Source: an uncultured Methanosarcinales archaeon (GTDB taxonomy: Archaea; Nanobdellota; Nanobdellia; Woesearchaeales; GW2011-AR4). From it: a DNA stretch of 64,000 bases. Below the pieces are notes generated by a model. That model did not search any database. It worked only from the letters and a program-made list of their open reading frames with translations, and was not told where the DNA came from. Both the position numbers and the translations under genes were made by a program. Shown piece by piece: positions 6,736-24,986 of this stretch; positions within the stretch are counted from its first letter, which is position 1, and each line of letters opens with the position of its first letter. Location: positions 2,544 through 66,543 of the forward strand of contig CAZPFO010000003.1 in assembly GCA_964585935.1 (NCBI GenBank). The letters are read 5' to 3'.

Positions 6736-6941
6736 TATAGTCTCTTTATCATTGTTTATCTAAATTTTTAATCATTAAAAAAATACAATAGGAAATTTTC
6801 TTGATTCTCAACATGATTGAAAATTTCGTCTTCTTCCATTCCTTCATGTCATGAGTTAAAGGAAAATCCTTAGTTGATTTTCGCAATTACTTTGGAATAA
6901 AGCGAAAATCCTATTTAATTTTATTATTGAATTTTAACTTT

Positions 6942-9269: not shown

Positions 9270-10151
9270 ATGGTCAAAAATACAGAATGGAATAATAAGA
9301 ATCTTGCTAAAAATTATGAACTAGGGAGACCCCTAAATTCAAAGATTATTTCCAATTTATTTCACGAAATAAAAAGAATCATTAAAAGTCCATATAACAA
9401 TAAAATTTTACTTGACGCTGGTTGCGGTACTGGAAGAGTAACTTTTCCTTTAGCACAAAAATATAAGCAACTTAAAATTATTGGAATCGATAAATCAAAA
9501 GAGATGTTGTCTGTTTTAAAAAATAAGGTAATTAATTCTAAAATTAAAAATTACGAAATAGTTAATGGAAACCTGACAAAGATTGATTATAAAGAAGACT
9601 ATTTTGATTTTTCATTAATTAGTTCTGTACTCCATTCAATTAAAAATTGGGAGAGTATTTTAAGAGAAATCATAAGAGTCACCAAAAAGGAAGGATTTTT
9701 ATTTTTATTAAGCGAAGAGGGAGAGATTTACAATATCGCATTAGGTCGCTCAAAAAGTAAGAACCGGAACATTACAGAAAAATTCTGGGGAACGTATACC
9801 GATTTAAGACACAAAAACAGATTGAGAGACCCAGAAGAATCCCAAATTGGAATAAAATGGCAGTTAGGGCACCCCGAGTTGATAGCTTACTTAAACCAAA
9901 AGGGTTATCTGGATTCAATTAAGAAAGTGAAAATTAAATGGAAAAAGGATTTTACAGTTAAAGATTTTATGAATATAGTTGAGTGCCGATGCTGGTCATC
10001 TATGTTCACTGCTGATGATGGAAAATATAGAAATCTTGTCAAAGATATGAAACAATGGCTTAAGGATGAGAATATTTCATTAAAAAATAAATGCCCCTCG
10101 AATTTCATTATTAAATGTGATATAGTCAAACTAAAAAACCATACCTTTTAG
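9270..10151 (+). CDS. class I SAM-dependent methyltransferase
   Basis: Motif I LLDAGCGTGRVT with a downstream acidic residue (IGIDKS). GGGGG-type RBS just upstream of the ATG. Confidence 0.7.
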   Translation: MVKNTEWNNKNLAKNYELGRPLNSKIISNLFHEIKRIIKSPYNNKILLDAGCGTGRVTFPLAQKYKQLKIIGIDKSKEMLSVLKNKVINSKIKNYEIVNGNLTKIDYKEDYFDFSLISSVLHSIKNWESILREIIRVTKKEGFLFLLSEEGEIYNIALGRSKSKNRNITEKFWGTYTDLRHKNRLRDPEESQIGIKWQLGHPELIAYLNQKGYLDSIKKVKIKWKKDFTVKDFMNIVECRCWSSMFTADDGKYRNLVKDMKQWLKDENISLKNKCPSNFIIKCDIVKLKNHTF

Positions 10152-11312: not shown

Positions 11313-11984
11313 TTATCCGATTTTACAATTATCAACCCATTTACAATACTCACACTCTCCTTTATCTTTAGGCATTTCTCCACTAAGAACTTTTAAGGCT
11401 TTTTTGAATATCTTTTCTGCATTTTCAATGCTGATCTTCATCTTCACTAAATCTGTGTTGAAAACAACATTTCCATTTTTATTAACCTTATCAGGATGAT
11501 AAAACAATAGATAAGCATAATCTTCTGTATCATAACCATTTTTCCTCAATAAAAAATTATAGATGTCTAATTGTTCTTGATAATGCTCATGAGTGTCTTC
11601 CTTTAAAGGGTATCCCCTTGTTTTATAGTCCAAAACTATTAATTTATTTCCTTTCACCAGAATATTATCTACTGCTCCTCTGAATAAATTCCCTTCTTTA
11701 TCTTTCCATTGGATGCCTTTGAAGTTGTTTCTCCATACTTCCAGCAGTTCTTTATCATCAAAGAGCTTTAACCCATCGCAGTCTTTATTTTCGCACAATT
11801 CAGGAGGCAATTCTCCTTTTTCCATATAGCTGTCAAAATGAGTCTTAAGGATCTTATCCATTCCACTTGGTAAAGAAGGAAATATTCCTGCTGGCCTTTT
11901 GATTTTCTTGTTAAAATGCAGCCAGAAACATCTAGGGCAGTCTTTTAGAATGCTTAAAGATGAATGGCTGAATTTAAATGGCAT
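11313..11984 (-). CDS. PD-(D/E)XK Cas4/RecB-like nuclease with Fe-S Cys cluster
   Basis: GAVDNI..VLDYKT (D..DxK core), QLDIY (QxxxY), N-terminal CPRC and C-terminal CEYCKWVDNC (C-x2-C-x5-C). Confidence 0.7.
   Translation of the reverse strand: MPFKFSHSSLSILKDCPRCFWLHFNKKIKRPAGIFPSLPSGMDKILKTHFDSYMEKGELPPELCENKDCDGLKLFDDKELLEVWRNNFKGIQWKDKEGNLFRGAVDNILVKGNKLIVLDYKTRGYPLKEDTHEHYQEQLDIYNFLLRKNGYDTEDYAYLLFYHPDKVNKNGNVVFNTDLVKMKISIENAEKIFKKALKVLSGEMPKDKGECEYCKWVDNCKIG
11887..11948. repeat. left copy of a perfect 62-bp inverted repeat (within the 5' end of the nuclease gene)
   Basis: The reverse complement of 11887..11948 is identical to 23378..23439 (CTAAAAGACTGCCCTAGATGTTTCTGGCTGCATTTTAACAAGAAAATCAAAAGGCCAGCAGG). 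Confidence 0.9.
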
Positions 11985-12027
11985 GGTTATTAGTTATGAG
12001 GGGGTTTTAAATAGTTTTTGTTGGATT

Positions 12028-12060
12028 TTCCACTGGACATCCTCGCGTAAGGTATATAAA
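12028..12060 (+). repeat. direct repeat A (TTCCACTGGACATCC..CGTAA..TATATAAA), left island boundary
   Basis: About 29 of 33 positions are identical to 23454..23486. A related third copy lies at 22517..22547, in the same orientation. Confidence 0.85.
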
Positions 12061-12101
12061 GGAGGTCGCATATTATATATTTAACCTAGTATATGACGTA
12101 C

Positions 12102-12130
12102 TTTTACGAAAAGTTTATAAATACGTAAAA
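12102..12130 (+). promoter_or_regulatory. promoter of the TA operon: TATA flanked by a 7-bp inverted repeat
   Basis: TTTATAAATA at 12114..12123 lies about 25-30 nt upstream of the start codons at 12146-12155. Arms TTTTACG (12102..12108) and CGTAAAA (12124..12130) bracket it, a possible antitoxin operator. Confidence 0.4.
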
Positions 12131-12145
12131 CCTACTTATTGCTAG

Positions 12146-12406
12146 GTGATGAGGATGAATGTGGAAACAGCTAAAATGTCAGAAAGAGGGCAGATAATCA
12201 TACCTAAGGAAATAAGGTCTGAAGTTGGAGCTTTAGAAAATACAATTTTTGCATTAAGCAGTATTGATAAAGATACAATAATCATGAAGAAATTAAACAC
12301 AAATGCTCTTGTGAATGAATTTAGAAGATTTAGGAATAAGTCTAAGAAGCTGTCTCCTTTTAGGATAGAGGAAGAGGTAAATGCGGCAAGAAAAAGTCGT
12401 TCTTGA
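12146..12406 (+). CDS. AbrB/SpoVT-fold antitoxin (VapB-like)
   Basis: MSERGQIIIPKEIR is the classic SpoVT/AbrB swapped-hairpin motif. The gene overlaps the PIN gene by 26 nt. GTG at 12146, with in-frame ATGs at 12149 and 12155. Confidence 0.7.
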   Translation: MMRMNVETAKMSERGQIIIPKEIRSEVGALENTIFALSSIDKDTIIMKKLNTNALVNEFRRFRNKSKKLSPFRIEEEVNAARKSRS

Positions 12407-12782
12407 CACGAATATAATAATATCTGCAGCTATTTCTTTGGATGGAAAACCAGCTAGGATCTTTGAACTTTTTTTGAATGGTGATTTAGTTAATTATTCT
12501 TCAAAAGAGATCATTGAAGAAGTTACTGAGGTTATCTCAAGGCCATTTTTTGGAATATCTGAAGAATATAGAGATTTTATTATTTCTAATCTAAAAGATA
12601 AGTCGATTATAATAAAACCGTCTTTCAATGAAGAGATCATTACTGAAGATGTTTCTGATAATAAGTTCATTAATTGCGCTTTATCAGCTAAAGCCTGCAT
12701 TATTTCTGGAGATAGACATTTGCTTAAGTTAAGAATATATAAAGGAGTTCGCGTTTTTAGCGCAACTGAGTTTTTAAAATGA
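12381..12782 (+). CDS. PIN-domain toxin (VapC-like)
   Basis: N-terminal VVLDTNIIISA with later acidic residues (EDVSDNKF, ISGDRHL). Paired with the upstream AbrB-fold gene. Confidence 0.7.
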   Translation: MRQEKVVLDTNIIISAAISLDGKPARIFELFLNGDLVNYSSKEIIEEVTEVISRPFFGISEEYRDFIISNLKDKSIIIKPSFNEEIITEDVSDNKFINCALSAKACIISGDRHLLKLRIYKGVRVFSATEFLK

Positions 12783-13444
12783 AAATTAAGGAAATTGCCC
12801 TAGACCAAAGGCCAAGGGAGAGATTAAAGGCAAATGGAGTAGAGTCTTTATCAGATTCAGAGCTGCTTGCGATTTTGCTGCAGAATGGCACTTTTGGAGA
12901 AAATGTAATAGATATGAGCAACAGGCTTATTTCTTCATTTGGGCTTGAAAAGCTGAATAGCTTAAGCTTAAAGGAAATAATGAAAATAAAAGGAATAGGT
13001 CCTGCAAAGGCTTCTAAACTATTGGCTTCATTTGAGCTTTCTAAAAGAGTAAATTCTGGAAAGATCTGCGAGAAAGTTGTTAAAAATTCTTCTGACATTG
13101 CTAAATATTACATGGAGAAATTAAAGGATAAGAAGAAAGAATACTTTATTGCTGTGTTTTTAGATTCCAAAAACAAAATCATAAAGGATGAAGTGATTTC
13201 AATCGGAACTTTAAATTCTTCATTAGTACATCCAAGAGAGGTGTTTAAGGAAGCTATAAAGAACTCTGCTAATTCAATTATTTTAGTGCATAATCATCCA
13301 AGTGGGGATTGTGAGCCGTCAAATGAAGATATCAAAATAACACAAAAATTAACAGACGCAAGTAATATGTTAAATATACAATTCTTAGACCATATAATTC
13401 TAGGAGATAATTATTGGAAAAGTGTGAAAGCACACCCCTTATAA
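12779..13444 (+). CDS. radC: RadC-like JAB/MPN domain protein
   Basis: HNHPSGDCEPSNED metal motif and an N-terminal HhH-like LSDSELLAILL. ATGA overlap with the PIN gene. Confidence 0.8.
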   Translation: MKIKEIALDQRPRERLKANGVESLSDSELLAILLQNGTFGENVIDMSNRLISSFGLEKLNSLSLKEIMKIKGIGPAKASKLLASFELSKRVNSGKICEKVVKNSSDIAKYYMEKLKDKKKEYFIAVFLDSKNKIIKDEVISIGTLNSSLVHPREVFKEAIKNSANSIILVHNHPSGDCEPSNEDIKITQKLTDASNMLNIQFLDHIILGDNYWKSVKAHPL

Positions 13445-14923
13445 TTTAAGATCTTCTAGAATCTTAATTATTTTTTTTTCATTATCAAGTATTTTCTTTT
13501 TTATTACTTCTGGCTTATCATATTTTACTTCTTCATATTCAATTTCTTTATACTTAGAAATACTTAAGTCATAATTATTTTCTTTAATTTCTTCAAATGG
13601 AACAAAAAAACATTTTCCTTTTCTATCAGAAGGTGTTTCCTTGGTTCTTATTTTAAACTGTTTTATAATATCTGGAATATCATCTTTTTCTATTTTTGTC
13701 CTTTTGTCATCAAGGCTAAAACCATCGTTTTCCATATCATAAAACCAAACATCTTTAGTGGGTTCTCCTTTTGTAAACATCAAAATACCTGTGCTTACTC
13801 CTGCATAAGGCTTAAAAACACCTGAAGGCATGGATATGACTACATCAAGCCTGCATTTTTCTAAAAGCAGTTTTCTAACTTTTTTATGGGCATTTGAATT
13901 TCCAAATAAAACACCATCTGGAACAATTACAGCACATCTCCCACTATTATTAAGAATATTAAACATCAATTCTAAAAATAATATTTCTGTTTTTTTAGTT
14001 TTTATTGTGAAGTTTTCATTTAGCTCAGATTCATCAACACTTCCCTTAAATGGGGGATTTGCAAGAACGATATCATAATACCCTTGTTGATTATATCTTG
14101 TAGATAAAGTATTTATCTGTTTGATATTGGGCCTATGGATTCCATGCATCATAAGATTCATCAAAGACACTCTAGTCATCACAGGATCAAAATCAAAGCC
14201 GTTTAGAGTACTTTCTCTTAATACTTTGTGTTGGTTATCATTTAGTTTGTCCCCAACAAAATTGTATTCGTTTCCTTCTTCATCTTTTTTTATTAATTCT
14301 TTTGAAGTGTTGTTTTTTAATATGTGTTCGTAAGAACTGACTAAGAACCCCGCAGTTCCACAAGCAGGATCGCAAATATTTTCTCCATATTTTGGTTCCA
14401 ATAATTCAACCATCATTTTAATTATGTGCCTTGGAGTTCTGAATTGCCCGTTTTTGCCTGCTGTCTTTAATTCTGACAATAAATATTCGTATAGATCTCC
14501 TTTTGTATCCCTATTTTGCTCTTTTATATGCATGCTGTTGATAATTTTAACTGCTTCTATTAGCAAAGAAGCTGTTGGGATGTTAAAAACAGAGTCTTTC
14601 ATATAAGTTGCATATAATGAATCTTCTCCTCCTAAATTTCTTAAAAAAGGAAATACCTTGTCTCTAACATGGTCTAGTATTTTATCAGCATTATATTCTG
14701 TCCACACAGACCATTTGCAGTTAGTATTGTCTTCGAATATGGATATATGTTTTTTCCCTAATAATTTTGCATCCTGCTCTTTTCTTATATCTTCATCTTC
14801 TAACCGTTTCATAAAGATTAAGTAAGACATTTGTTCTATTGCCTGCAATGGATTGCTAATTCCACCGCTCCAAAACTTATCCCATAATTGGTTTATTTTT
14901 GATTTTAGATTTGTGTCTAGCAT
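13439..14923 (-). CDS. hsdM: type I R-M N6-adenine DNA methyltransferase subunit
   Basis: Motif I DPACGTAGFL, motif IV LANPPFKG, and an N-terminal HsdM helical domain. Confidence 0.9.
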   Translation of the reverse strand: MLDTNLKSKINQLWDKFWSGGISNPLQAIEQMSYLIFMKRLEDEDIRKEQDAKLLGKKHISIFEDNTNCKWSVWTEYNADKILDHVRDKVFPFLRNLGGEDSLYATYMKDSVFNIPTASLLIEAVKIINSMHIKEQNRDTKGDLYEYLLSELKTAGKNGQFRTPRHIIKMMVELLEPKYGENICDPACGTAGFLVSSYEHILKNNTSKELIKKDEEGNEYNFVGDKLNDNQHKVLRESTLNGFDFDPVMTRVSLMNLMMHGIHRPNIKQINTLSTRYNQQGYYDIVLANPPFKGSVDESELNENFTIKTKKTEILFLELMFNILNNSGRCAVIVPDGVLFGNSNAHKKVRKLLLEKCRLDVVISMPSGVFKPYAGVSTGILMFTKGEPTKDVWFYDMENDGFSLDDKRTKIEKDDIPDIIKQFKIRTKETPSDRKGKCFFVPFEEIKENNYDLSISKYKEIEYEEVKYDKPEVIKKKILDNEKKIIKILEDLKL

Positions 14924-14938
14924 TTTATCCCTCCCCGA

Positions 14939-15313
14939 TTATAGTCCTTCCATAAGTAAAATTATCCCAATAATTAAAGAGCCACCAATTCTTAAAATCC
15001 ACCTATTTTGTTGGACTAACTCTTCAAACCACTTAATTTTGCTGATTCTACCATCAGTAATATATGATAAAAAACTCCATGTAGCTAACGTAAAAAAAAC
15101 TATTGAAATAATTCCTATCCATATTTTAACATTTTCCTTAATTCCAAAATAAGATATTAAAGTAACTGAATTCAAAAAGAATGTTAACCTGCTTGTATAT
15201 TTTGTTTCTATGAAAAGCCCGACCAGTAAAAGCGCGACTGCCGGCAGTAAAGCAATATATTCCAACCTAAACCCAGGTATAATCATAAAAAAAGATTGAA
15301 TTAGGTTAGTCAT
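14939..15313 (-). CDS. small four-helix membrane protein embedded in the R-M operon
   Basis: 124 aa with about 4 hydrophobic segments (YIALLPAVALLLVGLFI, LTFFLNSVTLISYFGI, IWIGIISIVFFTLATWSFL, IGGSLIIGIILLM). Its ATG overlaps the hsdS stop by 4 nt. Confidence 0.55.
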   Translation of the reverse strand: MTNLIQSFFMIIPGFRLEYIALLPAVALLLVGLFIETKYTSRLTFFLNSVTLISYFGIKENVKIWIGIISIVFFTLATWSFLSYITDGRISKIKWFEELVQQNRWILRIGGSLIIGIILLMEGL

Positions 15314-16449
15314 ATTATCAATTCCCCTTTGAAAGCTTTTTGCATCAAAGCATTAAATAAGTTGTCAATCTGATTTTTTGAATGTTTCTGTTGCTCTTTC
15401 ATAGCTTCAACTTCTTTAACAATTGAAGCGAATTTGTTTTGGAGTGAGGTTGGGGGGAAAATTATTTTGAAATCAGAGATTTGTCTTGAATTTAAGTGTG
15501 GTTGTCCAGCTCTTCTTGAAAGTGTTTTTATTATTGCCCTACTACTTCCTAAATTTAGCAACTCATTTAAAAAAACTGAATTCAAAATATCATTATTTAG
15601 ATGAAATATAATATCATACCCACCATATGATCCAACATATTTTTTTGTAACTACGGCACAATCCCCTGTGTTTACACCACTTCTAACAATAATCAAATCA
15701 TTTTCCTTAAGTTTACATTTTTCAATTTTTTTAGCTTCATCTTTATTTATATATAATATGCCATTTTCAATAATTCTACCTTGTTTAATGTTTGTTGCTC
15801 GAATAAACTTGATCCCTTCTTTAACATATTCGGGAGGGGAACCAGTTCCATATTTTATTTCAGTTAGATTGTCTCCTATTGTTGAATTGTTCCATCTTTG
15901 CTCATTCTTTATTGGATCTCCAAACATCTCCAAGAAAACACTTTTCAAAAAATCCTTAGTCAATTCATCTGTTTCTTTTCGCAGTTCTTTTGCTTTTTCT
16001 GCTTTTTCTAGGATTGAGACTATTTTTTTCTGGATTTCTTTATTTTCTGGATAATATACTTTAATATCCTGAATATATCCTTTAGAAATATGTTTCAATC
16101 CAGCACCTTTAAACCCTTCTTCTAGAAGATAAATTTTCCCATATAAATAATAATAAACATATTTCGCTATTATTTTGTCTTTTACTTTAACAATAAAACA
16201 ATCTGTGCTTGTTGAAAATTTTTCATTGCAATAATGAATCCCTGCATGTCCGCCAGTTGCAAAGATTAAATATTCTCCATCCTGAGTGTATTCATCAATA
16301 AATTTGGTTTGCTTATCGCTAGATGTAAAAAATTTATATTTACCTTTGTTTAAGCCTTCTCCTGCCTTTATCTTTGATTTTTTTTGAAAGTCAAATACTT
16401 CACCAAGTTCAACTTCTTTCCATCCTTCTGGTAATTTTTGTTTATTCAT
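15310..16449 (-). CDS. hsdS: type I R-M specificity subunit
   Basis: Two target-recognition halves separated by conserved helices (..LKSVFLEMFGDP.. and C-terminal ..LFNALMQKAFKGEL). Confidence 0.85.
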   Translation of the reverse strand: MNKQKLPEGWKEVELGEVFDFQKKSKIKAGEGLNKGKYKFFTSSDKQTKFIDEYTQDGEYLIFATGGHAGIHYCNEKFSTSTDCFIVKVKDKIIAKYVYYYLYGKIYLLEEGFKGAGLKHISKGYIQDIKVYYPENKEIQKKIVSILEKAEKAKELRKETDELTKDFLKSVFLEMFGDPIKNEQRWNNSTIGDNLTEIKYGTGSPPEYVKEGIKFIRATNIKQGRIIENGILYINKDEAKKIEKCKLKENDLIIVRSGVNTGDCAVVTKKYVGSYGGYDIIFHLNNDILNSVFLNELLNLGSSRAIIKTLSRRAGQPHLNSRQISDFKIIFPPTSLQNKFASIVKEVEAMKEQQKHSKNQIDNLFNALMQKAFKGELII

Positions 16450-16450
16450 T

Positions 16451-17185
16451 TTATTTTATATTCTCTTCTGCAAAATCAATCATTTCTTTTAATATTTTTA
16501 AAACTTCTTTTGGATTTTCATTTTTATAATCTTCAGAATAAAGATATCTTGCTGAATCCCTTAAGTTTGACAATTTAGATAAAGTTTCACTAAACTCAAT
16601 CTTAACATTCCCCAAATTTGCCCAATTCTGAAATTTATTCAGTCTATCTTTGTGATTTCTTCCAGTAAGAATCTTATTATCTGCCAACATCAATAAAACA
16701 CTTTTAGCAGATAGTTCAGCAGAAGCAAAAGCATTTTCAAAAAATGGTCTTAATCTACACTTATCTGAGTTTTCTTTTGCACTTTCATAAAATTCTTTAG
16801 AAGCTTTAATATGTTCTTTGATTATTTCTTTGTTATATCTTGCATCAAATGAGATTATCCAATTATTTTTAAATACCAATAAAGTAATATGGGAACAATT
16901 AACATCCTCGCCGGTTAATTTTACATTTTTAATTTTATCAATATCCTTCTCGTAAACTACTTCCCCTTTGTTTATTTGTTTATTGGATTTACATTCAACA
17001 ATTGCTTTAACTTGTTCATTTAATCTTATTCTATTTTTTCTATTTAATGAAAAGATTATTTGGACTTTAGAAATAACAAAATCATCTTTAATTTTTCCAA
17101 ATTTTCTTCTTCTCTCTACCTCAGGTTTCACCCAAATATCCATTACTTGCTGAAAAATTTTTTGTCCAATATTTTCTTCGTTCAT
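16451..17185 (-). CDS. two-domain protein with C-terminal HEPN-like helical domain
   Basis: The C-terminal about 130 aa show the HEPN-like pattern AELSAKSVLLMLA..GRNHKDRLNKF..LSNLRDSARY. The N-terminal about 110 aa are unassigned. A clear R-x4-6-H motif was not seen. Confidence 0.45.
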   Translation of the reverse strand: MNEENIGQKIFQQVMDIWVKPEVERRRKFGKIKDDFVISKVQIIFSLNRKNRIRLNEQVKAIVECKSNKQINKGEVVYEKDIDKIKNVKLTGEDVNCSHITLLVFKNNWIISFDARYNKEIIKEHIKASKEFYESAKENSDKCRLRPFFENAFASAELSAKSVLLMLADNKILTGRNHKDRLNKFQNWANLGNVKIEFSETLSKLSNLRDSARYLYSEDYKNENPKEVLKILKEMIDFAEENIK

Positions 17186-17556
17186 AATCCATTCCCCAAC
17201 ATTTTACTTGGTATTGAAACAGAATCTTTTTTCTTTTTCTTAATAGCTGACGTTCTTTCCTCCAGAGATTTATCTAAAACCTTCTTCAGATCTTCTAAAT
17301 ATTCAGCAGATAAATCTTTTAAAATATTGATTTCCTCATTAGAATCAAGAATAACATCCCAATCAAAAGTATCTTTTCCTTTGTCATAAGAAATAATGTT
17401 TTTTCCAGCAATATTCTGTGGAATAGGAACTTTAATCTCATGTAAAAGTAGATCTCTAATTAAAGATGCAGGAGTAGCGCCTTTTTTTTCACAGTAAGAT
17501 TTAACTAACATTGCTTCATGCACAGTCAGCTTTGTTGAAACGGATTTGAAGTTCAT
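17182..17556 (-). CDS. ribbon-helix-helix-like small protein
   Basis: N-terminal strand-helix-helix pattern STKLTV-HEAMLVKSYCEKKG-TPASLIRDLLLHEI. Its stop overlaps the HEPN-like gene start by 4 nt. Confidence 0.45.
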   Translation of the reverse strand: MNFKSVSTKLTVHEAMLVKSYCEKKGATPASLIRDLLLHEIKVPIPQNIAGKNIISYDKGKDTFDWDVILDSNEEINILKDLSAEYLEDLKKVLDKSLEERTSAIKKKKKDSVSIPSKMLGNGL

Positions 17557-17578
17557 GGTGATTGGAAATTGAAGCTCA

Positions 17579-17586
17579 TTTATATA
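17579..17586 (-). promoter_or_regulatory. TATA box for the RHH/HEPN/hsdS/hsdM transcription unit
   Basis: The minus strand reads TATATAAA, centred about 26 nt upstream of the ATG at 17556. Confidence 0.45.
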
Positions 17587-17600
17587 CTTTTCTGTTTTTC

Positions 17601-17622
17601 ATGGTCAACCTAAGTTGACCAT
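17601..17622. promoter_or_regulatory. perfect palindrome ATGGTCAAC-N4-GTTGACCAT (candidate operator)
   Basis: 9-bp arms with a 4-nt spacer, 15-35 nt upstream of the TATA of the RHH-like gene. Confidence 0.45.
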
Positions 17623-17745
17623 ATTATCAAGCCATTATTAAAAGAAAAGTTTATATACTTACAATCTTATTACCTTATTAACGAGTAAGTCATGCTGAAC
17701 GGATGACGGCTCAGGATTGAGCTCAGGACAAATAAGCATGGTTCG

Positions 17746-18402
17746 TTATTTTTTCTTGAATAAATCATTTTTCTCGATAATAACTTTATCCTTAAATAAG
17801 TTTATGTAAGATTCACAATCTCCCTTTTGCTTGGCAGTATTATACTTATAACCAAAGGCTCCGCATATAAAATCAGTCACTTGCAGTCCTGGATGCCCCG
17901 CTGAACTAACATGCACTACGTTAATCTTAGGCACTTTATTGAAAAGATACACGAATTCTGTCTCGATATATGCTCTAAAATTTTCCATTTGGTTTTTAGA
18001 CATGCATTTATCAAGGTAAATAGTTAAATTATTGGAGATATCAATTTCTTTAAGAGGTTTTTCAAGCAGAATCTTCAAAAGATAATTGTAAAGAATTGGC
18101 AAATTATCCCTTAATTCATTATTTGTATACTCTTTTTTTATTATCAATGAAAATACTTGCAGATCTAGATCTTTTAATCTTGATAGGTATCTTTCTCTGA
18201 TTAAAGGTGAAGAATTTGTAAATTTCAATTCAAATCCCTTTTTATATTTCTTTTTCAAGGTTCTTTGCCTGACTTTCTTTGGGATTCTTAAAAATGCTAC
18301 ATTATCTTTTTCATTATCAATCTTAGCGCAGGTTATTATAAAATAGTTGCTTCCCTTTTCAAAACCCAAATCACCACTCTCATCGATATATAAATAGCCC
18401 AT
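17746..18402 (-). CDS. DUF3800-like protein
   Basis: The N-terminus MGYLYIDESGDLG is the hallmark DUF3800 start motif. The gene starts 1 nt after the hsdR stop. Confidence 0.6.
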   Translation of the reverse strand: MGYLYIDESGDLGFEKGSNYFIITCAKIDNEKDNVAFLRIPKKVRQRTLKKKYKKGFELKFTNSSPLIRERYLSRLKDLDLQVFSLIIKKEYTNNELRDNLPILYNYLLKILLEKPLKEIDISNNLTIYLDKCMSKNQMENFRAYIETEFVYLFNKVPKINVVHVSSAGHPGLQVTDFICGAFGYKYNTAKQKGDCESYINLFKDKVIIEKNDLFKKK

Positions 18403-18403
18403 T

Positions 18404-21124
18404 TTATCTCATTCTTATTTCATTGCACTTCTCTACTATAACCTTTAATTCAGACTCTTCGAATTTATCTAAAGGCCTTTCATCAGAAAGCGGAGATTTT
18501 GCAAAATCAGCAAGTTCAATTTTCTTATGATTTGAGAAAAACTTCTTAAGAAGAAGTAAGAATTCAATTTGCTCATAATTGTATTTTGGATCCATTATGT
18601 GTTTATGAAACTCTCTTTCAATAATCTCTTGAGGGTCATATTCATGTGTTAATCCAATTATTTGATATATAAACACTAAAAAGTCCTTATTTAGCTGGTT
18701 TTGTATATTCTCAATAGAGTAAGCAGGATTTAAAGCTGTTAGTTGTTTTTCAAGGTGTACAATCTCTTTTGAGGTTATGCTTCCTCCGCTCTTTATTTTT
18801 TGTAATATAGGATTATTTTTAACAAATTCCTCAAATTTTGAATCATGTTGTATTTCATAATCTACCTCTTCTTCCCTTATAATCATATCAGGAGCATCAA
18901 CCCTTACCATCTTTTTAGGCAATGGTTCATAGTATTTCATCAAAGGAGCAATCTCTTTAATTAGAAATTCAACTTTCTCGAATGTAAGGTCATCCCAATA
19001 ACTTTCCTGTAACACTTTTAATATGTCCTTTTTCTTATTCTGGATTTCAGAAAGAGAATCTTTCAAAAGAATATTATTAAGCATCTCCCACACATAATTC
19101 TTAATTTTTTCAATTTTATGCTGCTCAGATTTTATTATATGTTTGAATAATTTTTCAGTTTGCAATATGAATGAAGTTATATTAGCATTATCTCCTTGAT
19201 TTAAAATCATTAATGGAGCGATATCTGAAAGAAGTCCTCTGACATATTTCTCCAGATCAAATGTTTTTCCAATTTTGGTTAATAAAGGTAGTTTATCCCT
19301 AATTACAAATGAATCTTTATCAAGACTTTTTATATCCCAAATAAGTTTATCCACTATAATCTTTTTCTGTTCATTACTTAGTTTTTCTTTTAATAGATTA
19401 ACACGATTTTCAAAAATAGATACCATAACATTCTTGCCAGAATCTTTATCTTTTGATTGTTTAATTTTATGAACCTTAATGTTTGAATGGCCCCCAATTA
19501 CAAAATCTAATACTAAAAAATCATTTTTCTCTCTATGCTGCAGCCATTCAGGATGCTTACAAGCATCCAAATTTCTAGTTCCCCTTCCCATCATTTGCCA
19601 AAATCTAATTGAAGAAAAAACAGGCCTTGCAAAAACTAGATTACAAACTTCAGGAATATCAACCCCCGTATCTAACATTCCAACACTTAAAGCAATCCTT
19701 GGCTCTGAATTTAGCTTAAATCTCCTTATCTCATCTTGAGCCCTATATTCATCAGAAGTTATAACTTGTACTTCCTTGCTTAGTTTAGGAAACAATTCTC
19801 CAAATATTTTTTTTATTGCTTTAGCGTGGTTTTTTCCAACACAGAAAAATATGGTTTTTGCTGGGAGATTTTCATCAGACCTGTAACATCTATTAACAAA
19901 TTCGGCGACAATAATCTCATTAATTCTTCTGTCAACAAACACTTTCTCATACTTAGAACCTTCAATTTCAAAACTTTCAGGATCAATTTCCTGCTTTCTT
20001 AACTGATCTTTTAGATCTTCACTCAATTTTTGACCCTTAATGCCTAACTCCAACCGTTCTGTTTCAATTATTTTACCCTTATACGGAACCAAGATCCCAT
20101 CATTAACTGCATCATCATAACTGTACTCAATAGTGGGTTCCCCCCTTTTACATCCAAATAAATCATAAGTGTTTTTGCTCTCATGTTGTCTAGGTGTTGC
20201 AGTTAATCCAACCTTTATTGCATCAAAATACATATTTACATAATTATTTTTATCATAAATTGATCTATGGGCTTCATCAAATATAATCAAGTCAAAAAAA
20301 CCCGGGCTGAATTTCTCAAACATAGTTTTTCCTTTCTTCCCCATCAATGTTTGAATTGTTGAAGTATAAAGCCTTGCAGTAGTTGAAAAACCCTTTATGT
20401 GTAATTCAACTGTAGGCTCTCCCCTAAAAAATTCCTTAAAACCATCTGAACTAGCCTGATTTGCTAAAATAATCCTATCAGCGATAAATAAAACATTCCT
20501 AACATAATTTGCTTTTTTTAATATATCAATCAAAGCCATGGCTAATCGTGTTTTTCCAGTTCCAGTAGCCATTTGAACTAATGCCTTCCCATAACCTTTT
20601 GAGAAATGCTCTGCAAGCTGTTTTACAAACAGGATATTTTTAGGCCTCTTATCTCCCATTATTCTTGGGTTGACTGGAATTTTTGAAGGATCTTTCTGAT
20701 TATTGTAAAGCTCCTTTCTTCTTTTCAAATCTTCTTGCGAAAAAACTCCACTAACTATTCTTTCAATTTCATCTTGATCTTTGTAAATCCATTTTATACC
20801 ATTTGTTAAAAACATAGGTAATCTATAATTGAGCTGTTTTTCAATATCTTTAACATAAGTTCTAGATTGAATAGTACCTGTATCCGGCTCTTTAGAAGGT
20901 TTTTTAACTTCAATTATCGCTAAAGGGGTAAAATCTTCTGCCAACAAAAGATAATCTATAAATCTATCTACTCCTTTTTCTATACTCGGGCCTTTTAAGA
21001 CATAATCTTTATTTTTAAAATTTGACTTAACAGAATTAACTTCTTCTTTTATATATTCTTTTAACCAACCAGCTTTCTTTAGTTGTTTATCAATCAGGTT
21101 TTTCCTTGTTGTTTGTTCATCCAT
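18404..21124 (-). CDS. hsdR: type I restriction enzyme R subunit (helicase-nuclease)
   Basis: N-terminal HsdR-type nuclease region, Walker A MATGTGKT, DEAH box IIFDEAHRS, motif VI QMMGRGTR, and a long C-terminal helical tail. Confidence 0.9.
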   Translation of the reverse strand: MDEQTTRKNLIDKQLKKAGWLKEYIKEEVNSVKSNFKNKDYVLKGPSIEKGVDRFIDYLLLAEDFTPLAIIEVKKPSKEPDTGTIQSRTYVKDIEKQLNYRLPMFLTNGIKWIYKDQDEIERIVSGVFSQEDLKRRKELYNNQKDPSKIPVNPRIMGDKRPKNILFVKQLAEHFSKGYGKALVQMATGTGKTRLAMALIDILKKANYVRNVLFIADRIILANQASSDGFKEFFRGEPTVELHIKGFSTTARLYTSTIQTLMGKKGKTMFEKFSPGFFDLIIFDEAHRSIYDKNNYVNMYFDAIKVGLTATPRQHESKNTYDLFGCKRGEPTIEYSYDDAVNDGILVPYKGKIIETERLELGIKGQKLSEDLKDQLRKQEIDPESFEIEGSKYEKVFVDRRINEIIVAEFVNRCYRSDENLPAKTIFFCVGKNHAKAIKKIFGELFPKLSKEVQVITSDEYRAQDEIRRFKLNSEPRIALSVGMLDTGVDIPEVCNLVFARPVFSSIRFWQMMGRGTRNLDACKHPEWLQHREKNDFLVLDFVIGGHSNIKVHKIKQSKDKDSGKNVMVSIFENRVNLLKEKLSNEQKKIIVDKLIWDIKSLDKDSFVIRDKLPLLTKIGKTFDLEKYVRGLLSDIAPLMILNQGDNANITSFILQTEKLFKHIIKSEQHKIEKIKNYVWEMLNNILLKDSLSEIQNKKKDILKVLQESYWDDLTFEKVEFLIKEIAPLMKYYEPLPKKMVRVDAPDMIIREEEVDYEIQHDSKFEEFVKNNPILQKIKSGGSITSKEIVHLEKQLTALNPAYSIENIQNQLNKDFLVFIYQIIGLTHEYDPQEIIEREFHKHIMDPKYNYEQIEFLLLLKKFFSNHKKIELADFAKSPLSDERPLDKFEESELKVIVEKCNEIRMR

Positions 21125-21344
21125 TTTTAAACTCTTTACCCTCTTGTCTCGATGATAAACATAATACTCTATTTAAACATTTCTCAATATAAAACCAGAA
21201 ATCACAGGGTGGAGGGCTACCACCAACCTTAAAGAGCCAGAATTAAATTCCCTCCCTTGTTTATCATAGAAAACAAATTATCATTGGAAAAAAACTAAGA
21301 ATTCTTTGGCTGAAAAGAATCCAAAACACTGATGAAAAGAAGGC

Positions 21345-22061
21345 TTATTTCTCAAGCACATCTACAAAATTAAATTCAGGAATACCCTCCCCAATAAGTT
21401 TATATCTTCTATGTTCTCTAAATGGTAAGTCTTTAATCAATGAATGATCTAATCTTTCTTGTTCAGCCCAATATAATCCCTCTTTTCCTTTTTCTGTCGT
21501 TTCATTCCCCCAAATCATTGTATAACAAATCACAATTCCACCTTCTTTTAGTACTCTTGCTTTGTTTTCTAAACCCATTCTAATTGCAGCATTACTTCGT
21601 TGTTTTAGTATTCCACCCCCATCCCAATAAGTTGGCACTAAAAAATCACTACTTGCAGTAATATCAAAAGATTGGTCTGGAAATTGAAGTGCCATTGCAT
21701 TCATAACTTGAACATCCAAACCACCCTTCTTACCTTCAATAATGTAATCATCATTAATATCAATTCTAATAACTTTAAATCCTAAAGTTTCAAGAATTTT
21801 TACGCTTAAACCATAACCACATGCAATGTTAAGAACCTCTCCAGTTTTCCCTTCTTTTTCTAATACGGGAATTAATGGAAAATGATTTATGAGTTGGTGA
21901 TATATTCTAAAATTTTGTTGTTCTTTCTCGGATAGAGTAGACACATCAACATTACCATCAATAATTTTCTTATATTCAAGTACACTTTCTGATTGCAATT
22001 TATTAGATATATCCCTGTGTCTATCTTCATCAATCCTTAACTCAACATCTACGCAATTCAT
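21345..22061 (-). CDS. class I SAM-dependent methyltransferase (orphan)
   Basis: Motif I LNIACGYGLS followed by the acidic IRIDIND. The substrate is not inferable. Confidence 0.6.
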   Translation of the reverse strand: MNCVDVELRIDEDRHRDISNKLQSESVLEYKKIIDGNVDVSTLSEKEQQNFRIYHQLINHFPLIPVLEKEGKTGEVLNIACGYGLSVKILETLGFKVIRIDINDDYIIEGKKGGLDVQVMNAMALQFPDQSFDITASSDFLVPTYWDGGGILKQRSNAAIRMGLENKARVLKEGGIVICYTMIWGNETTEKGKEGLYWAEQERLDHSLIKDLPFREHRRYKLIGEGIPEFNFVDVLEK

Positions 22062-22516
22062 AACAGAGACTAAGCATTATCGATTTATAACTTTAACTGA
22101 TTCAAACCATTATTAACCACCCCAAACATTGCCACGAAGGTGTCTTATCAAGGCACGAAGAAACCAAGGAAAGGTTTAAAAAACAGTTTTCATTATTTTA
22201 TATCTAATAGGTAATTCTTAAAAACCAAGAAGTATCTTCCCTCCCCTTTATTTTTCCAGGTCTTCCCCTTGCTACTTTGCCTCCTTACTGACAACAATAC
22301 TCTTTTGCTCATTTTTTAGTGATATAGAAATATATCTTTTTATATCAAAAGATATACATATATTTCAAGTTTTCGGTCTTTTCATAGTCGACAAATTCAT
22401 TTTGGATTCAAAAAAAGGAAAAAAAAGAATTTTAATCGAATTTCTGCTATTCCTCACTATCTAACCCCTCAGAATTCTATAACAAACCCACTCATTCCAC
22501 TTAAATTAGCTCTTTG

Positions 22517-22547
22517 TTCACTGGACATCCACCCATACTATTTAAAC
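22517..22547 (+). repeat. direct repeat B (TTCACTGGACATCC..)
   Basis: Degenerate third copy of the boundary repeat, in the same orientation as A and C. Confidence 0.7.
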
Positions 22548-22549
22548 CT

Positions 22550-22936
22550 CTAAACATTTCTAGCAGAAACAGCAACCGCACCAACAGAAGAGGTATTTAT
22601 ATGATTATTGGGTTCTTTTTTAAATTCCTTCTCAACCACTGATTCGATAACAGACCAAAAGTAATCTATAAATTTCTTTACTGGGGGATTGTTCACATTC
22701 AATTTGTACAGTTTAGCGTTTCCTATATCCCTTGTATGAACTACAATCTTTCTTTTTGTGAACTCTTTCCAGACTGTTTTTAAAGAAGCATAGCTAACTT
22801 TAGAATATCTTGCGATTTCTCTCATTGAATAATCAAGTTCGGAATGGACTATCAAAAAGTCCCATATCCTGTTTTTTACTGTATTTCCTTCGACTTTCAA
22901 AAATACTGATGCCATCATACCAAATAGTGGGCTCAT
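22550..22936 (-). CDS. winged-helix DNA-binding protein
   Basis: RIWDFLIVHSELDYSMREIARYSKVSYASLKTVWKEFTKRKIVVHTRDIGNAKLYKLN fits an HTH plus wing. The ORF-track start at 22939 is TTG. ATGs lie at 22936 and 22918, the latter about 26 nt from a TATA. Confidence 0.55.
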   Translation of the reverse strand: MSPLFGMMASVFLKVEGNTVKNRIWDFLIVHSELDYSMREIARYSKVSYASLKTVWKEFTKRKIVVHTRDIGNAKLYKLNVNNPPVKKFIDYFWSVIESVVEKEFKKEPNNHINTSSVGAVAVSARNV

Positions 22937-22992
22937 CAACTATTTAAATGTTTCTTTTTTATACCTTAAGGGCTAAAAAAATAGCCTTATCT

Positions 22993-23000
22993 TTATATAC
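22993..23000 (+). promoter_or_regulatory. TATA box for the 23022 gene (leaderless)
   Basis: TTTATATA centred about 25 nt upstream of the ATG at 23022. Confidence 0.45.
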
Positions 23001-23021
23001 TAATACTATTTACACATTACA

Positions 23022-23345
23022 ATGAAAGTAAAAAAGAGCGAGTATATCAAGATAAGCAGAACAATGGTCAAAAAACTTTTTGATGAAACATGTTTCGGCA
23101 AGGGCTCTATGTACTTGGATAATCTAGCAAAAGGTTTGAGTAATAGGGAGTTTTCAAGTTTGAATATAACAAAAGATAAAGTAAAAATTGTGCTTGATGC
23201 TTTGGTAAAGCAAAAAATAGTTGGTAAGAAGAAAAAAGAGCATGGCTGGAAGTACTATCTTAACATGGAACGTTATGATAAAATAAAAGAGATTATCAAA
23301 GAAACAGGAAAAAAATCTATTATTCCAATATTATTGATGTTATAA
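23022..23345 (+). CDS. small hypothetical protein, possibly winged-helix
   Basis: 107 aa. VLDALVKQKIVGKKKKEHGWKYYLN resembles a recognition helix plus wing. Confidence 0.35.
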   Translation: MKVKKSEYIKISRTMVKKLFDETCFGKGSMYLDNLAKGLSNREFSSLNITKDKVKIVLDALVKQKIVGKKKKEHGWKYYLNMERYDKIKEIIKETGKKSIIPILLML

Positions 23346-23347
23346 TC

Positions 23348-23476
23348 ATGACCTGCAAATTAGGACATTTATCTTTACTAAAAGACTGCCCTAGATGTTT
23401 CTGGCTGCATTTTAACAAGAAAATCAAAAGGCCAGCAGGGATATCCTCTTCCTTTCCACTGGACATCCCCCCGTAA
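23348..23476 (+). pseudogene. 5' fragment of a Cas4/RecB-like nuclease gene (paralogue of 11313..11984)
   Basis: Encodes MTCKLGHLSLLKDCPRCFWLHFNKKIKRPAGISSSFPLDIPP*. Its 62-bp core is identical to the inverted 5' end of the intact gene. It terminates inside direct repeat C. Confidence 0.7.
23378..23439. repeat. right copy of the perfect 62-bp inverted repeat
   Basis: See 11887..11948. Confidence 0.9.
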
Positions 23477-23486
23477 ACTATATAAA
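23454..23486 (+). repeat. direct repeat C, right island boundary; contains the TATA of the next gene
   Basis: TTCCACTGGACATCCCCCCGTAAACTATATAAA. The TATATAAA at 23479..23486 is centred about 25 nt upstream of the ATG at 23508. Confidence 0.85.
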
Positions 23487-23507
23487 CAACTAATCTATCC
23501 TTTTTTC

Positions 23508-24335
23508 ATGAACATTTCTGTTTCATTGCTTTCAGCTTACCAATACTGCCCAAGAAAGATATTCTTAGAGCGTGTCTTGAAACTTTACGAGCCTCCAAAA
23601 GAAGCATTACTTCTGGGAACAATAAGGCATGAAATATATGAATTAATCAACAACAAGGAAGAAGAAATTGTCACAAATATCCAAGAAAAAACATCTAATG
23701 AAGAATTAGAGACCACATACAAAAACATATATTCAAAAATTCTAAGGAACGTTATTATCAAGCACAAGGAAAACCTGAAACAGTTTGAAGTAAACATAAA
23801 CGAACTTTTCAAAAGAATTCAACCATTGATACAAAACGAAGCAAAAAACAGGTCAAATAACATATCAATCTTCATAAATAAACACAATATCTTCGGCAAA
23901 GAACTATGGGAAAAGCTAACCCCTAAGATACAGTCAGAAATAAAGATAAGATCAGCAACCCTAAACCTGACAGGAATAATTGACCAGCTGGAAATCTACG
24001 AAGATAGCTTTACCCCAATCGAATTAAAGACAGGAAAAGCCCCAAAAGAAGGAGCATGGCCCGGCCATAAGATACAGATTGCAGCATATGCTATGTTATT
24101 AGAAGAAAAGCACAACACCAAAATAAAAGAAGGCTTCATACACTATCTTGATATAAATGAACGTAGACATATCCCGATAAACATCTTCCTAAAAGAAGAG
24201 ATAATTCAATTAATAGAAAAAGTAAAAACCTTGCTGCAAAGCAAAACCATACCAGACTTCTGCAATAATAAAAACAAATGCAATGTATGCGGCCTAAGAA
24301 CCAGCTGTTACGATAAAAAACTAAAAGTTCCTTAA
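23508..24335 (+). CDS. cas4: Cas4-family PD-(D/E)XK exonuclease with 4-Cys cluster (stand-alone)
   Basis: N-terminal YQYCPRKIFLE, core IIDQLE..IELKTGK, and C-terminal CNVCGLRTSC (C-x2-C-x5-C). No CRISPR array or other cas genes in the window. Confidence 0.7.
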   Translation: MNISVSLLSAYQYCPRKIFLERVLKLYEPPKEALLLGTIRHEIYELINNKEEEIVTNIQEKTSNEELETTYKNIYSKILRNVIIKHKENLKQFEVNINELFKRIQPLIQNEAKNRSNNISIFINKHNIFGKELWEKLTPKIQSEIKIRSATLNLTGIIDQLEIYEDSFTPIELKTGKAPKEGAWPGHKIQIAAYAMLLEEKHNTKIKEGFIHYLDINERRHIPINIFLKEEIIQLIEKVKTLLQSKTIPDFCNNKNKCNVCGLRTSCYDKKLKVP

Positions 24336-24986
24336 AACAACGCGAATAAAATCAACAACAATAGAAAAAGGATTGATATACGAGGATTCTGCGCCATAAA
24401 TTGTTTCTATTGGCACATATCTGACTTTAAAGCCTGCTCTTGAAGCCTTGATCAAAAACTCTGTTTCAGCCATATAACCTGATTCATCAACCTTAACCTT
24501 CCTCAGCACATCAGTTTTTATAAATCTATAACCTGATTGAGAGTCAAGAATTCTTTGTCTGCATATCAAAGACAAAACAAATGATGAAAACTTGTTTGCA
24601 ATTATCCTTGATAAGGGCATATGCTCCAGATTCCACATCCTGTTTCCTATGATTATATCCGCATCACTTACTAAAAATTTGGGTATCTCTGAAGGATTAT
24701 GCTGGCCATCTGCATCAATCGTGATAACAGCATCAAAATTATTTTTGACAGCATATCCAAATCCTGCCTTTAGCGCAACCCCCTTGCCCATATTCCTTTC
24801 CATCCTAATAACATCAACACCTTCTCTCTTGATAACTCCATTGTTATCAGTGCTGCCGTCATCAACAACAAGAACATCCTTATTATGTTTTTTTACTTTT
24901 TCAATTACCTCTCCTATATGTTTTCCATCATTATAGCAGGGTATAACAGCTAATACGCTCATATTAAAAGAGAAGTAGTTACGCAT
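24321..24986 (-). CDS. family 2 glycosyltransferase (Dpm1/DPG-synthase-like)
   Basis: VIPCYNDG..VVDDGSTD..DADGQH motifs. Alternative ATG at 24962. Confidence 0.8.
   Translation of the reverse strand: MRNYFSFNMSVLAVIPCYNDGKHIGEVIEKVKKHNKDVLVVDDGSTDNNGVIKREGVDVIRMERNMGKGVALKAGFGYAVKNNFDAVITIDADGQHNPSEIPKFLVSDADIIIGNRMWNLEHMPLSRIIANKFSSFVLSLICRQRILDSQSGYRFIKTDVLRKVKVDESGYMAETEFLIKASRAGFKVRYVPIETIYGAESSYINPFSIVVDFIRVVLRNF

Follow-up and report, generated by a model that had tools for sequence, protein, structure and literature searches.

Defence islands, and hot spots at which defence genes gather between conserved core genes, have been described (Makarova et al. 2011), including a set of hot spots in Escherichia coli (PMC10121019). 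Few defence islands have been reported in the DPANN archaea (7 islands in 1453 archaeal metagenome-assembled genomes; PMC12259885). Genomes of the DPANN archaea carry solo Cas4 genes, sometimes two distinct ones, and the inheritance of solo Cas4 has been described as mostly vertical (Hudaiberdiev et al. 2017, PMC5704561). The DNA analysed here, which is referred to as the window and taken at its full length of 64 kb, comes from the chromosome of a DPANN (Woesearchaeota-like) archaeon and has such a pair of solo Cas4-family genes: one encodes a solo Cas4-like PD-(D/E)XK nuclease (NUC), the other a solo Cas4, and the slot between them is filled with a block of defence genes (Table 1). Two copies of a short direct repeat bracket the block, with A beside NUC and C beside Cas4, a third and degenerate copy (B) is found towards its right end, and the 5′ end of NUC recurs in inverted orientation next to C.

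The explanation that we favour, to which we give a probability of about 0.65, is that an 11.5-kb defence block sits in a variable slot, that the direct repeats are copies of a promoter module and that the inverted repeat is a converted remnant of NUC, with no self-mobile element involved. Under this explanation C would drive Cas4, A would accompany NUC and B would have decayed, and a regulator that binds the CACTGGACAT element at the core of the repeats may co-control Cas4, NUC and part of the cargo. The remnant of NUC would be a relic left by an earlier rearrangement at the start of the gene, and a recent gene conversion, in one direction or the other, would account for the match of its central 62 nt to the live gene. 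Gain, loss and inversion of the cargo itself may be the work of the host's own recombination at short stretches of homology (promoter modules, NUC 5′ ends and microhomologies), and not of a self-encoded integrase, with selection presumably keeping NUC intact during the turnover of the cargo.

Variable content of the slot upstream of Cas4

Relatives for comparison, the contigs of which are labelled with an L and a number, were retrieved through homologs of NUC and of Cas4. The frame of the slot, with genes for an M16 peptidase and TyrRS on one side and for Cas4, a PRC-barrel protein and RFC on the other, was found in all of those syntenic with the window, and it is the content of the slot that differs: the five syntenic loci (the window, L104, L090, L013 and L107) hold five different fillings. 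In L104, which has the same long gene order (identities to the window of 77% for M16, 66% for TyrRS, 69% for Cas4, 92% for the PRC-barrel protein and 86% for RFC), the slot holds one EamA transporter gene, with neither NUC nor the island. It is empty in L090, where 108 nt separate TyrRS from Cas4. The slot of L013 contains NUC and 1.37 kb with a ParE-like toxin–antitoxin (TA) module, that of L107 (Cas4 71% identical) contains RadC, GMT-wHTH (winged helix-turn-helix), a radical-SAM gene and small open reading frames (ORFs), and that of the window contains NUC and 11.5 kb of defence cargo. A complete type I restriction–modification (R-M) system, an AbrB-PIN pair, a HEPN protein, a DUF3800 protein (PDC-M04A) and RadC are clustered there with the two Cas4-family nucleases. 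With this clustering, and with content that differs between conserved flanks from one relative to the next, the locus works as a defence hot spot between conserved genes, and the space upstream of the conserved solo Cas4 gene is a recombination-prone, fast-changing slot.

A preliminary description of this DNA had called the segment accessory and its cargo that of a defence island; the empty or differently filled sites of the relatives bear out the former, and the R-M, AbrB-PIN, RadC, HEPN and DUF3800 matches the latter. Its proposal to look for empty sites had a mixed outcome: L104 and L090 each carry a single copy of the repeat motif and no island, but both also lack NUC, which lies outside A–C. 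The idea that the window corresponds to L013 with the whole segment inverted was withdrawn, as A matches the degenerate, NUC-proximal copy of L013 in both position and orientation and the cargos are unrelated. Like the known defence hot spots, the locus assembles several systems (type I R-M, TA, HEPN and DUF3800/PDC-M04A) at one position with conserved flanks and varying content. It is unlike them in belonging to a DPANN archaeon, in having two solo Cas4-family nucleases as the frame of the slot, in showing neither an integrase nor a mobile backbone and in that several of the cargo units share the promoter module of the flanking genes.

The flanks of the island are made up of housekeeping genes (proteasome ATPase, M16, M24 and M29 peptidases, a TyrRS-type synthetase, RFC, eRF1 and transketolase). 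The G+C content is 0.27–0.33 over 9–24 kb, as against 0.32–0.43 (mostly 0.35–0.41) in the remaining window. Two further insertions were noted in the window relative to L104, namely a methyltransferase gene between M16 and TyrRS (9270–10151), at which the stretch of low G+C begins, and a GT2-acyltransferase pair between Cas4 and the PRC-barrel gene (24321–25623). A Pfam scan covered 44 window ORFs, including every island ORF of at least 100 aa and leaving out a run of short co-oriented ORFs at 50–62 kb, and no recombinase domain (tyrosine or serine recombinase, Phage_integrase or invertase) was found among these 44, in keeping with the earlier statement that the island has no integrase. There are no tRNA genes within the 64-kb window, and no excisionase was seen in it. 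Both repeat junctions are present base for base in an independent assembly (NCBI VAPB01 contigs L001 and L002), and the structure is therefore not an assembly artefact or chimera.

The direct repeats and the promoter module

The direct repeats A, B and C that the preliminary description had pointed out are real, and were recovered by a repeat finder as one family (D1), all on the plus strand. Over 34 nt, the identity to A is 88% for C and 65% for B, and A and C share a run of 16 identical nt; the 15-mer TTCCACTGGACATCC is matched exactly by A and C and with two mismatches by B, its sole other match in the 64 kb being one with three mismatches at 3750. The TATA box of C starts at −29 from the Cas4 ATG, which is the spacing of a leaderless gene. 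Across the genes of the window, TATA-like 8-mers made up of A and T alone are most frequent at −32 to −24 from the ATG, a peak that is the signature of archaeal promoters with leaderless mRNAs. A is separated by 42 nt from the NUC ATG and is oriented away from that gene, facing the AbrB-PIN-RadC operon, which has its own proximal TATA box at 12114–12123; it stands between two diverging TATA boxes, one of them being that of NUC. In B the spacer is 2 nt shorter and no ATG is found at the usual distance.

The layout of the module is CACTGGACAT, 10–13 nt, a TATA box, 21–27 nt and a leaderless ATG, which may be read as an upstream element (probably a transcription-factor site) followed at these distances by a TFB recognition element (BRE) with its TATA box and by the predicted start of a leaderless mRNA. 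Exact copies of CACTGGACAT number 15 in 1.27 Mb of non-redundant loci plus the window, compared with 1.0 ± 1.45 for 400 10-mers of the same composition, and an A/T-only TATA-like box lies 10–13 nt downstream of the core in all 15. The distance from the start of the core to the ATG is 51–59 nt in nine copies (eight exact, together with one in L039 that has one mismatch), and the genes behind these nine are Cas4 (three times), NUC (L084), RadC (L063), a LAGLIDADG-like gene, BRO-N, an NTase-like gene and an ORF of L041; two further Cas4 copies, in L104 and L107, have a distance of 52 nt. The preliminary description had itself named a promoter-proximal motif that is common genome-wide as the finding that would speak against its own view of the repeats, and within the 1.27 Mb this is what was seen, with the core enriched before the TATA box and ATG of unrelated genes.

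Each of the three copies in the window can be placed in this setting. The module is present in the Cas4 promoters of the window, L104, L107, L013 and L090 alike, and nucleotide homology between the window and L013 begins exactly at 23454, that is, at the motif. Since L104 and L090 have a single near-identical copy before Cas4 and lack both NUC and the island, C is the native Cas4 promoter. The motif is also found within about 60 nt of NUC at L084, L069 and L041 (and, with one mismatch, at L054). Its roles at NUC loci vary: it forms the NUC promoter in L084, drives an MNT-HEPN-NUC operon in L076, is divergent from NUC in L069 and L054 (the latter with one mismatch) and lies just downstream in L041. 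A is a copy of the type that appears commonly to accompany NUC at unrelated loci. B closes a non-coding block with counterparts of 76% identity in two further genomes (L099 and L100), and is probably a relic of the promoter module. The block itself, of about 190 nt and about 76% identity, is found in three NUC-bearing islands of different organisms (window 22289–22475, L099 692–878 and L100 2430–2587). In L099 and L100 it precedes a gene of 79–80 aa that starts with MAKRVLLSIPE and looks ribbon-helix-helix-like by eye, and which appears decayed in the window. No Rfam family was matched over 21900–23600, which includes the block.

The simplest reading of the motif is that of an upstream element shared by a regulon of nuclease, repair and defence genes, with a putative regulator. 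Two copies would bracket the slot because both bracketing genes belong to this proposed regulon, and the repeats would resemble each other through the shared regulator and not through duplication of a target on insertion. In bacteria, defence systems share regulators of the BrxR/CapW type, which are WYL or wHTH repressors. The window resembles this kind of regulation in having one short operator-like element before many unrelated defence and nuclease genes, travelling with them. It differs in that the element is upstream of an archaeal BRE/TATA with leaderless mRNAs, and in that the regulator is putative, the products of two small cargo genes, u129 and u107, being weak wHTH candidates.

Further features of the motif were noted. 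A possible fourth, degenerate copy of the module lies at 12705–12743 (TCTGGAGATAGACATTTGC...ATATATAAA), inside the end of the PIN gene and before RadC, with a TATA box and following bases that resemble A (family D19); RadC in L063 carries a clean copy. A partial second copy, CACTGG(A/T)CACTGGACAT, precedes the core at L076 8906, L014 11116, L039 13171 and L084 9942, which suggests tandem half-sites for the presumed regulator, and the central TCCAcTGGA of the window copies is palindromic. In IMG/VR the motif has 2 matches, about the number estimated for chance. A scan for bacterial sigma-70 promoters gave results at or below chance, as expected for an archaeon.

NUC remnants and competing explanations

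The translation of NUC has an N-terminal CxxC (C16, C19) and a C-terminal CX2CX5C. It scores 34.6 bits on TIGR00372, for which the cutoff is 65, and is below cutoff for the NCBIfam and PADLOC Cas4 models, and thus, though the cysteine pattern (one or two N-terminal cysteines plus CX2CX5C) is present, NUC is Cas4-like and not a proven member of the family. The Cas4 of the right edge exceeds the curated cutoff and has the four-cysteine pattern. The two window proteins share no BLAST-level similarity. NUC had no match among the sequences of solved structures and no real relative in IMG/VR viral contigs, where a single match, of 26%, was obtained, and a viral origin was rejected. Its homologs number 3750, the best being 73–82% identical and those with names being from Woesearchaeota or Nanoarchaeota. 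The closest all sit amid R-M, GmrSD, SIR2, HEPN, Fic and similar genes, and neighbourhoods are extremely variable, the most widespread neighbour family (HsdS) being present at just 12 of 83 loci. Unlike the solo Cas4 genes described previously (PMC5704561), NUC has very variable surroundings, is present or absent at the same slot and falls below the Cas4 cutoffs. Across genomes of Woesearchaeota and Pacearchaeota (L010–L089) NUC is 61–78% identical, and in the same relatives TyrRS is 38–66% and Cas4 33–71% identical; some genomes have two copies (L053 and L086, on one contig; L019 and L058). NUC is often the last gene of an operon, its ATG overlapping the previous stop, as in HsdR-YgjP-NUC (L101) and HEPN-NUC (L066).

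The arms of the inverted repeat are 81 nt long and 93% complementary, with a perfect run of 62 nt. Outside this core the relic matches NUC at 17 of 30 positions before it, with a 6-nt indel, in the automatic alignment (about 22 of 30 when realigned by eye) and at 13 of 20 after it, and so the 62/62 identity of the core stands against about 57–73% in the flanks. Over the same 62 columns seven other NUC alleles share 40–51 nt with the window gene (65–82%), and because they differ at 11–22 of the 62 positions the perfect core is not ordinary conservation. The 42-aa peptide of the relic matches residues 1–39 of NUC at 74% identity, and homology to NUC fades where repeat C begins, at a patch of microhomology (CCAAGTGGAAT in NUC and CCACTGGACAT in the motif). 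The inverted repeat is a decayed and, by its sequence, non-functional remnant of the NUC 5′ end, and its core is best explained as the tract of a recent gene conversion between the relic and the live NUC; recombination or gene conversion had already been put forward in the preliminary description for a perfect core within diverged flanks, and the identities of the core, flanks and alleles uphold it. The window relic is the only inverted one seen, and so at least the u129-u107-relic piece would once have been flipped or inserted backwards. A derivation of the relic from another allele class of NUC (MTYKL type) is conceivable, as its first 15 nt resemble L055 and L066, but overall it is closest to the resident gene.

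Relics of this kind recur elsewhere. A second copy of the −20 to +120 segment is present in the same locus for 7 of 81 NUC genes, compared with 8 of 782 other genes (odds ratio 9.2, p=1.7e-4), and each of the eight relics tested is closest to its own resident NUC. Those at six other NUC loci are direct copies. Their boundaries vary, starting at −159 to +8 and ending at +31 to +117, which argues for homologous or illegitimate recombination rather than for a fixed-site enzyme. In L066 (6376–10651) three units, each composed of a NUC 5′ relic of 69–81 nt, a TATA box, a wHTH-nucleotidyltransferase (MNT) gene and a HEPN gene, are followed by an intact NUC; the cassette proteins are 24–30% identical to each other and the relics 80–92%. 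Unit 2 has its ortholog in the MNT-HEPN-NUC operon of L076 (71% nucleotide identity over 1.1 kb), from which it follows that a later unit inserted into NUC and duplicated its first ~90 nt. L042 has MNT-HEPN-relic, then inserted genes and then NUC. In L006 a second, partial NUC was noted (12676–12895 and 14024–14103), which consists of the upstream region with the first 61 nt and, separately, of the last ~50 nt, and three 45-nt direct repeats from the NUC 3′ end (including 15179–15223 and 15852–15896) bracket a HEPN-MNT pair and a ParE-antitoxin pair. Taken together, these loci point to the NUC 5′ end as a probable hot spot of recombination, the relics of which sometimes bound stacked TA cassettes.

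It would be a further step to see in the NUC 5′ end a landing site dedicated to an integron-like platform that has no integrase, on which promoter-led cassettes (HEPN-MNT and others) are stacked, each leaving a relic, and of which the relic and island of the window would be products. This we hold to be unlikely. Divergent proteins alongside similar relics in L066, the orthology of its unit 2 with L076, the order of L042, the 3′-end fragments around the cassettes of L006 and the significant excess of relics are all as such a platform would leave them, but unequal crossing-over or Campbell-type homologous recombination, with selection for an intact NUC, gives the same picture. No fixed crossover point is visible in the relic boundaries, relics occur at 7 of 81 loci only, no enzyme is implicated, no identical cassette was seen in two different arrays, and the relic of the window is in inverted orientation, with no cassette array adjoining it. 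A version framed for the Woesearchaeota, in which the first 40–120 nt of NUC are a reusable cassette landing site without an integrase, NUC is regenerated each time and possibly serves the process, and CACTGGACAT ties the cassettes into one regulon, is put forward as a rather doubtful proposal.

Elements of the SXT/R391 type integrate in the 5′ end of prfC and supply the gene with a new 5′ end. The NUC relics of L066, L042, L083, L062 and L006 are similar in leaving a displaced 5′ fragment on one side and an intact gene on the other, and are dissimilar in that the NUC relic units have no integrase, have variable repeat ends and are tiny (0.7–1.5 kb), and in that the window relic is inverted. 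A likeness also exists to integrons and to clusters of attC sites lacking integron-integrases (CALINs), archaeal integrons among them (PMC9668308), as small cassettes, often TA, are stacked beside one conserved gene and separated by a repeat (L066 and L006). Unlike in integrons, no IntI was found in the window and there is no attC-type hairpin (the folds of A, B, C and the relic are no more stable than those of shuffled sequences, z −0.8 to +1.0), the cassettes have promoters of their own and the repeat is coding DNA of the neighbouring nuclease.

The preliminary description had read A, B and C as attL/attR with a tandem module. In full, A–C would then be an integrated mobile island, with A and C derived from an attB in the Cas4 promoter, B marking a second tandem module and the integrase acting in trans or lost, which we now consider quite unlikely. 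Direct repeats do flank the cargo, with their 16-nt identical stretch, and the 4.2-kb module of L107 again lies between direct copies (at 1943 and 6129), but in L013 the copies are head-to-head or inverted, and the motif stands at a fixed distance from TATA box and ATG before many unrelated genes in many genomes, which is not the specificity of an element end. L104 and L090 carry exactly one copy, as an attB site would, but, lacking NUC (with EamA in its place in L104), which is outside A–C, they are not empty sites of A–C. The variable DNA starts at the edge of the motif in all relatives; A-type copies, however, are found beside NUC at unrelated loci, C is native to Cas4, and B is part of a conserved non-coding block, which it ends. 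Tyrosine recombinase genes are found near NUC elsewhere, at 6895–7713 in L098 and 10392–11210 in L099 (1.2 kb downstream) and at 462–1196 in L100 (9 kb upstream), and some NUC islands in other organisms may be integrase-borne, unlike that of the window, where neither integrase, tRNA nor excisionase was found. Of the five defining properties of an attL/attR island, three (end specificity, an A–C empty site and a recombinase in the ORFs scanned) are absent, and an att role, although conceivable, is not needed. Variants of the idea were also discarded: C as a hybrid att site (A-type on the left, Cas4-type on the right), since the native Cas4 promoters of L104 and L107 have the same CATCCCC-type sequence; B as the original Cas4 site with B–C as a later insertion, since the DNA upstream of B aligns with the L099/L100 block and not with the Cas4-upstream DNA of L104 and L107; and a tRNA as the insertion target, there being none in the window.

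As improbable as the attL/attR reading is the proposal that the 62–81-bp inverted repeat is a working switch, which flips the 11.4-kb segment through homologous or site-specific recombination, exchanges the N-terminus and the promoter of NUC (its own leaderless one for read-through from u107) and gives two states in the population. The perfect 62-nt core shows that the arms recombine, at least by conversion, a crossover in it would leave NUC in frame with an alternative N-terminus, and the relic ATG lies 3 nt after the u107 stop, the stop-to-ATG arrangement of the HEPN-NUC operons in L066 and L042. The flanks of the relic have decayed, however, its N-terminus has a 2-aa deletion relative to the family consensus, and the second NUC 5′ copies of the six other loci are direct. 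A single orientation is on record (window, L001 and L002), no invertase gene was found in the 44 scanned ORFs, and a weak peptide search with the relic ORF (a short query, with 6 residues past the stop) returned one unrelated truncated NUC and no chimeric NUC. Logan unitigs L003, L005 and L103 break off within the 62-nt core or at its border, as predicted from branching of a k-mer graph, and are uninformative on orientation. As in shufflons, Hin/Gin-type switches and hsdS inversions, inverted repeats flank a segment with type I R-M; unlike in these, no invertase was found, the repeat lies outside hsdS, a single orientation is seen and a decayed pseudogene makes up one of the arms. That the relic is kept as a regulator, with a leftward transcript from the quasi-symmetric TATA of C (TTTATATA, 23486–23479 on the minus strand, a good TATA box) running antisense to it and pairing, through a perfect or near-perfect complementarity of 62–81 nt, with the first ~80 nt of the NUC mRNA, is highly improbable, as the BRE-like purine-rich stretch (CGTAAAC) is on the Cas4 side only, a relic is missing at the orthologous promoters of L104, L090 and L013, neither an Rfam match nor an unusual fold was seen and the direct relics of other genomes are not antisense-capable.

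Several points also weigh against the explanation preferred here, that of a defence block in a variable slot with promoter copies as its direct repeats. The TATA boxes and transcription starts were assigned from geometry and conservation, and the regulator is presumed. The TATA box of A is 85–95 nt before the AbrB start, with a closer one available, and A is therefore possibly not a working promoter there; B drives no gene. The single motif copy of the empty sites would also fit an attB, and because at all five syntenic loci no more than 3 nt separate the edge of the motif from the start of the variable DNA, the motif may still act as a recombination breakpoint. The window and the more distant L013 have NUC and the closer L104 lacks it; the gene was either ancestral in the slot or came with the cargo. 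Two other islands (L098/L099 and L100) have tyrosine recombinase genes in the vicinity of NUC. Finally, the comparison loci were all picked for carrying NUC or Cas4, and the motif counts cover such loci only.

Cargo and significance

The features of the slot and its edges are listed in Table 1. The homologs of u129 and u107 occur as the same divergent pair in L055. Within the R-M operon, an Rfam DUF3800-X RNA motif was noted at 17679–17748 on the plus strand (60.3 bits, with a gathering score of 38.2), directly upstream of the DUF3800 gene and on the opposite strand. An inverted repeat at 12095–12131 (CTTTTACG ... CGTAAAA) straddles the proximal TATA box of the AbrB-PIN operon and is, by eye, a likely autoregulatory operator.

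Table 1. Features of the defence slot and its edges, in window coordinates
Feature	Coordinates	Strand	Evidence or remark
NUC, solo Cas4-like PD-(D/E)XK nuclease, 223 aa; left edge of slot, conserved	11313..11984	-	Pfam PDDEXK_1 E=1e-12 and weak Cas4 match
Left arm of inverted repeat, in NUC 5′ coding region (codons 13-39); perfect core 11887-11948	11868..11948	-	Repeat finder
Predicted NUC TATA box TATTTAAAA, starting 29 nt before the ATG at 11984	12005..12013	-	Sequence; implies leaderless mRNA
Repeat A, promoter module	12027..12060	+	Core CACTGGACAT 12031-12040, TATATAAA 12053-12060
AbrB/MazE-type antitoxin	12146-12406	+	Pfam, NCBIfam
PIN toxin	12381-12782	+	Pfam, NCBIfam
RadC; ends AbrB-PIN-RadC operon 12146..13444	12779-13444	+	Pfam, NCBIfam
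Type I R-M operon with inserted genes	13439..21124	-	Pfam, PADLOC
HsdM	13439-14923	-	PADLOC MTase_I E=6e-175
Unknown gene in R-M operon	14939-15313	-	
HsdS	15310-16449	-	PADLOC Specificity_I
HEPN protein	16451-17185	-	Pfam
Second unknown gene in R-M operon	17182-17556	-	
DUF3800	17746-18402	-	Pfam; PADLOC PDC-M04A
HsdR	18404-21124	-	PADLOC REase_I
SAM-dependent methyltransferase (Methyltransf_11)	21345..22061	-	Pfam
Non-coding conserved block with A/T-rich perfect-centre palindrome (22320-22367)	22289..22475	.	Alignment to L099, L100; decayed gene in window
Repeat B, degenerate module copy	22515..22548	+	Exact core 22519-22528, TATA-like TATTTAAA 22539-22546
u129 and u107, divergent small-gene pair 22550..23345	22550-22939 / 23022-23345	- / +	Weak winged-helix matches only
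NUC 5′-end relic, 42-aa ORF; right arm 23378-23458, perfect core 23378-23439	23348..23476	+	Translation, match to NUC
Repeat C, native Cas4 promoter	23453..23486	+	Core 23457-23466, TATATAAA 23479-23486, ATG 23508 (21 nt on)
Solo Cas4, 275 aa; right edge of slot, conserved	23508..24335	+	TIGR00372 cas4 112 bits (cutoff 65); Pfam Cas_Cas4

What is new in this locus is that it belongs to a DPANN archaeon, that two solo Cas4-family genes form its frame, that its promoter element is also carried by the cargo and that relics of the NUC 5′ end recur. For scans of genomes it holds a warning, as repeated promoter modules that flank a variable region can mimic attL/attR. The genomes of DPANN archaea are tiny and few defence islands have been reported in them, and the locus provides a well-defined slot of fast turnover between two solo Cas4-family nucleases. 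The excess of NUC 5′ relics, some of which bound stacked TA cassettes, hints at the gain of cassettes without an integrase, and the promoter element common to Cas4, NUC, RadC and assorted defence and selfish genes in Woesearchaeota would be the first handle on a defence and repair regulon in this uncultured lineage.

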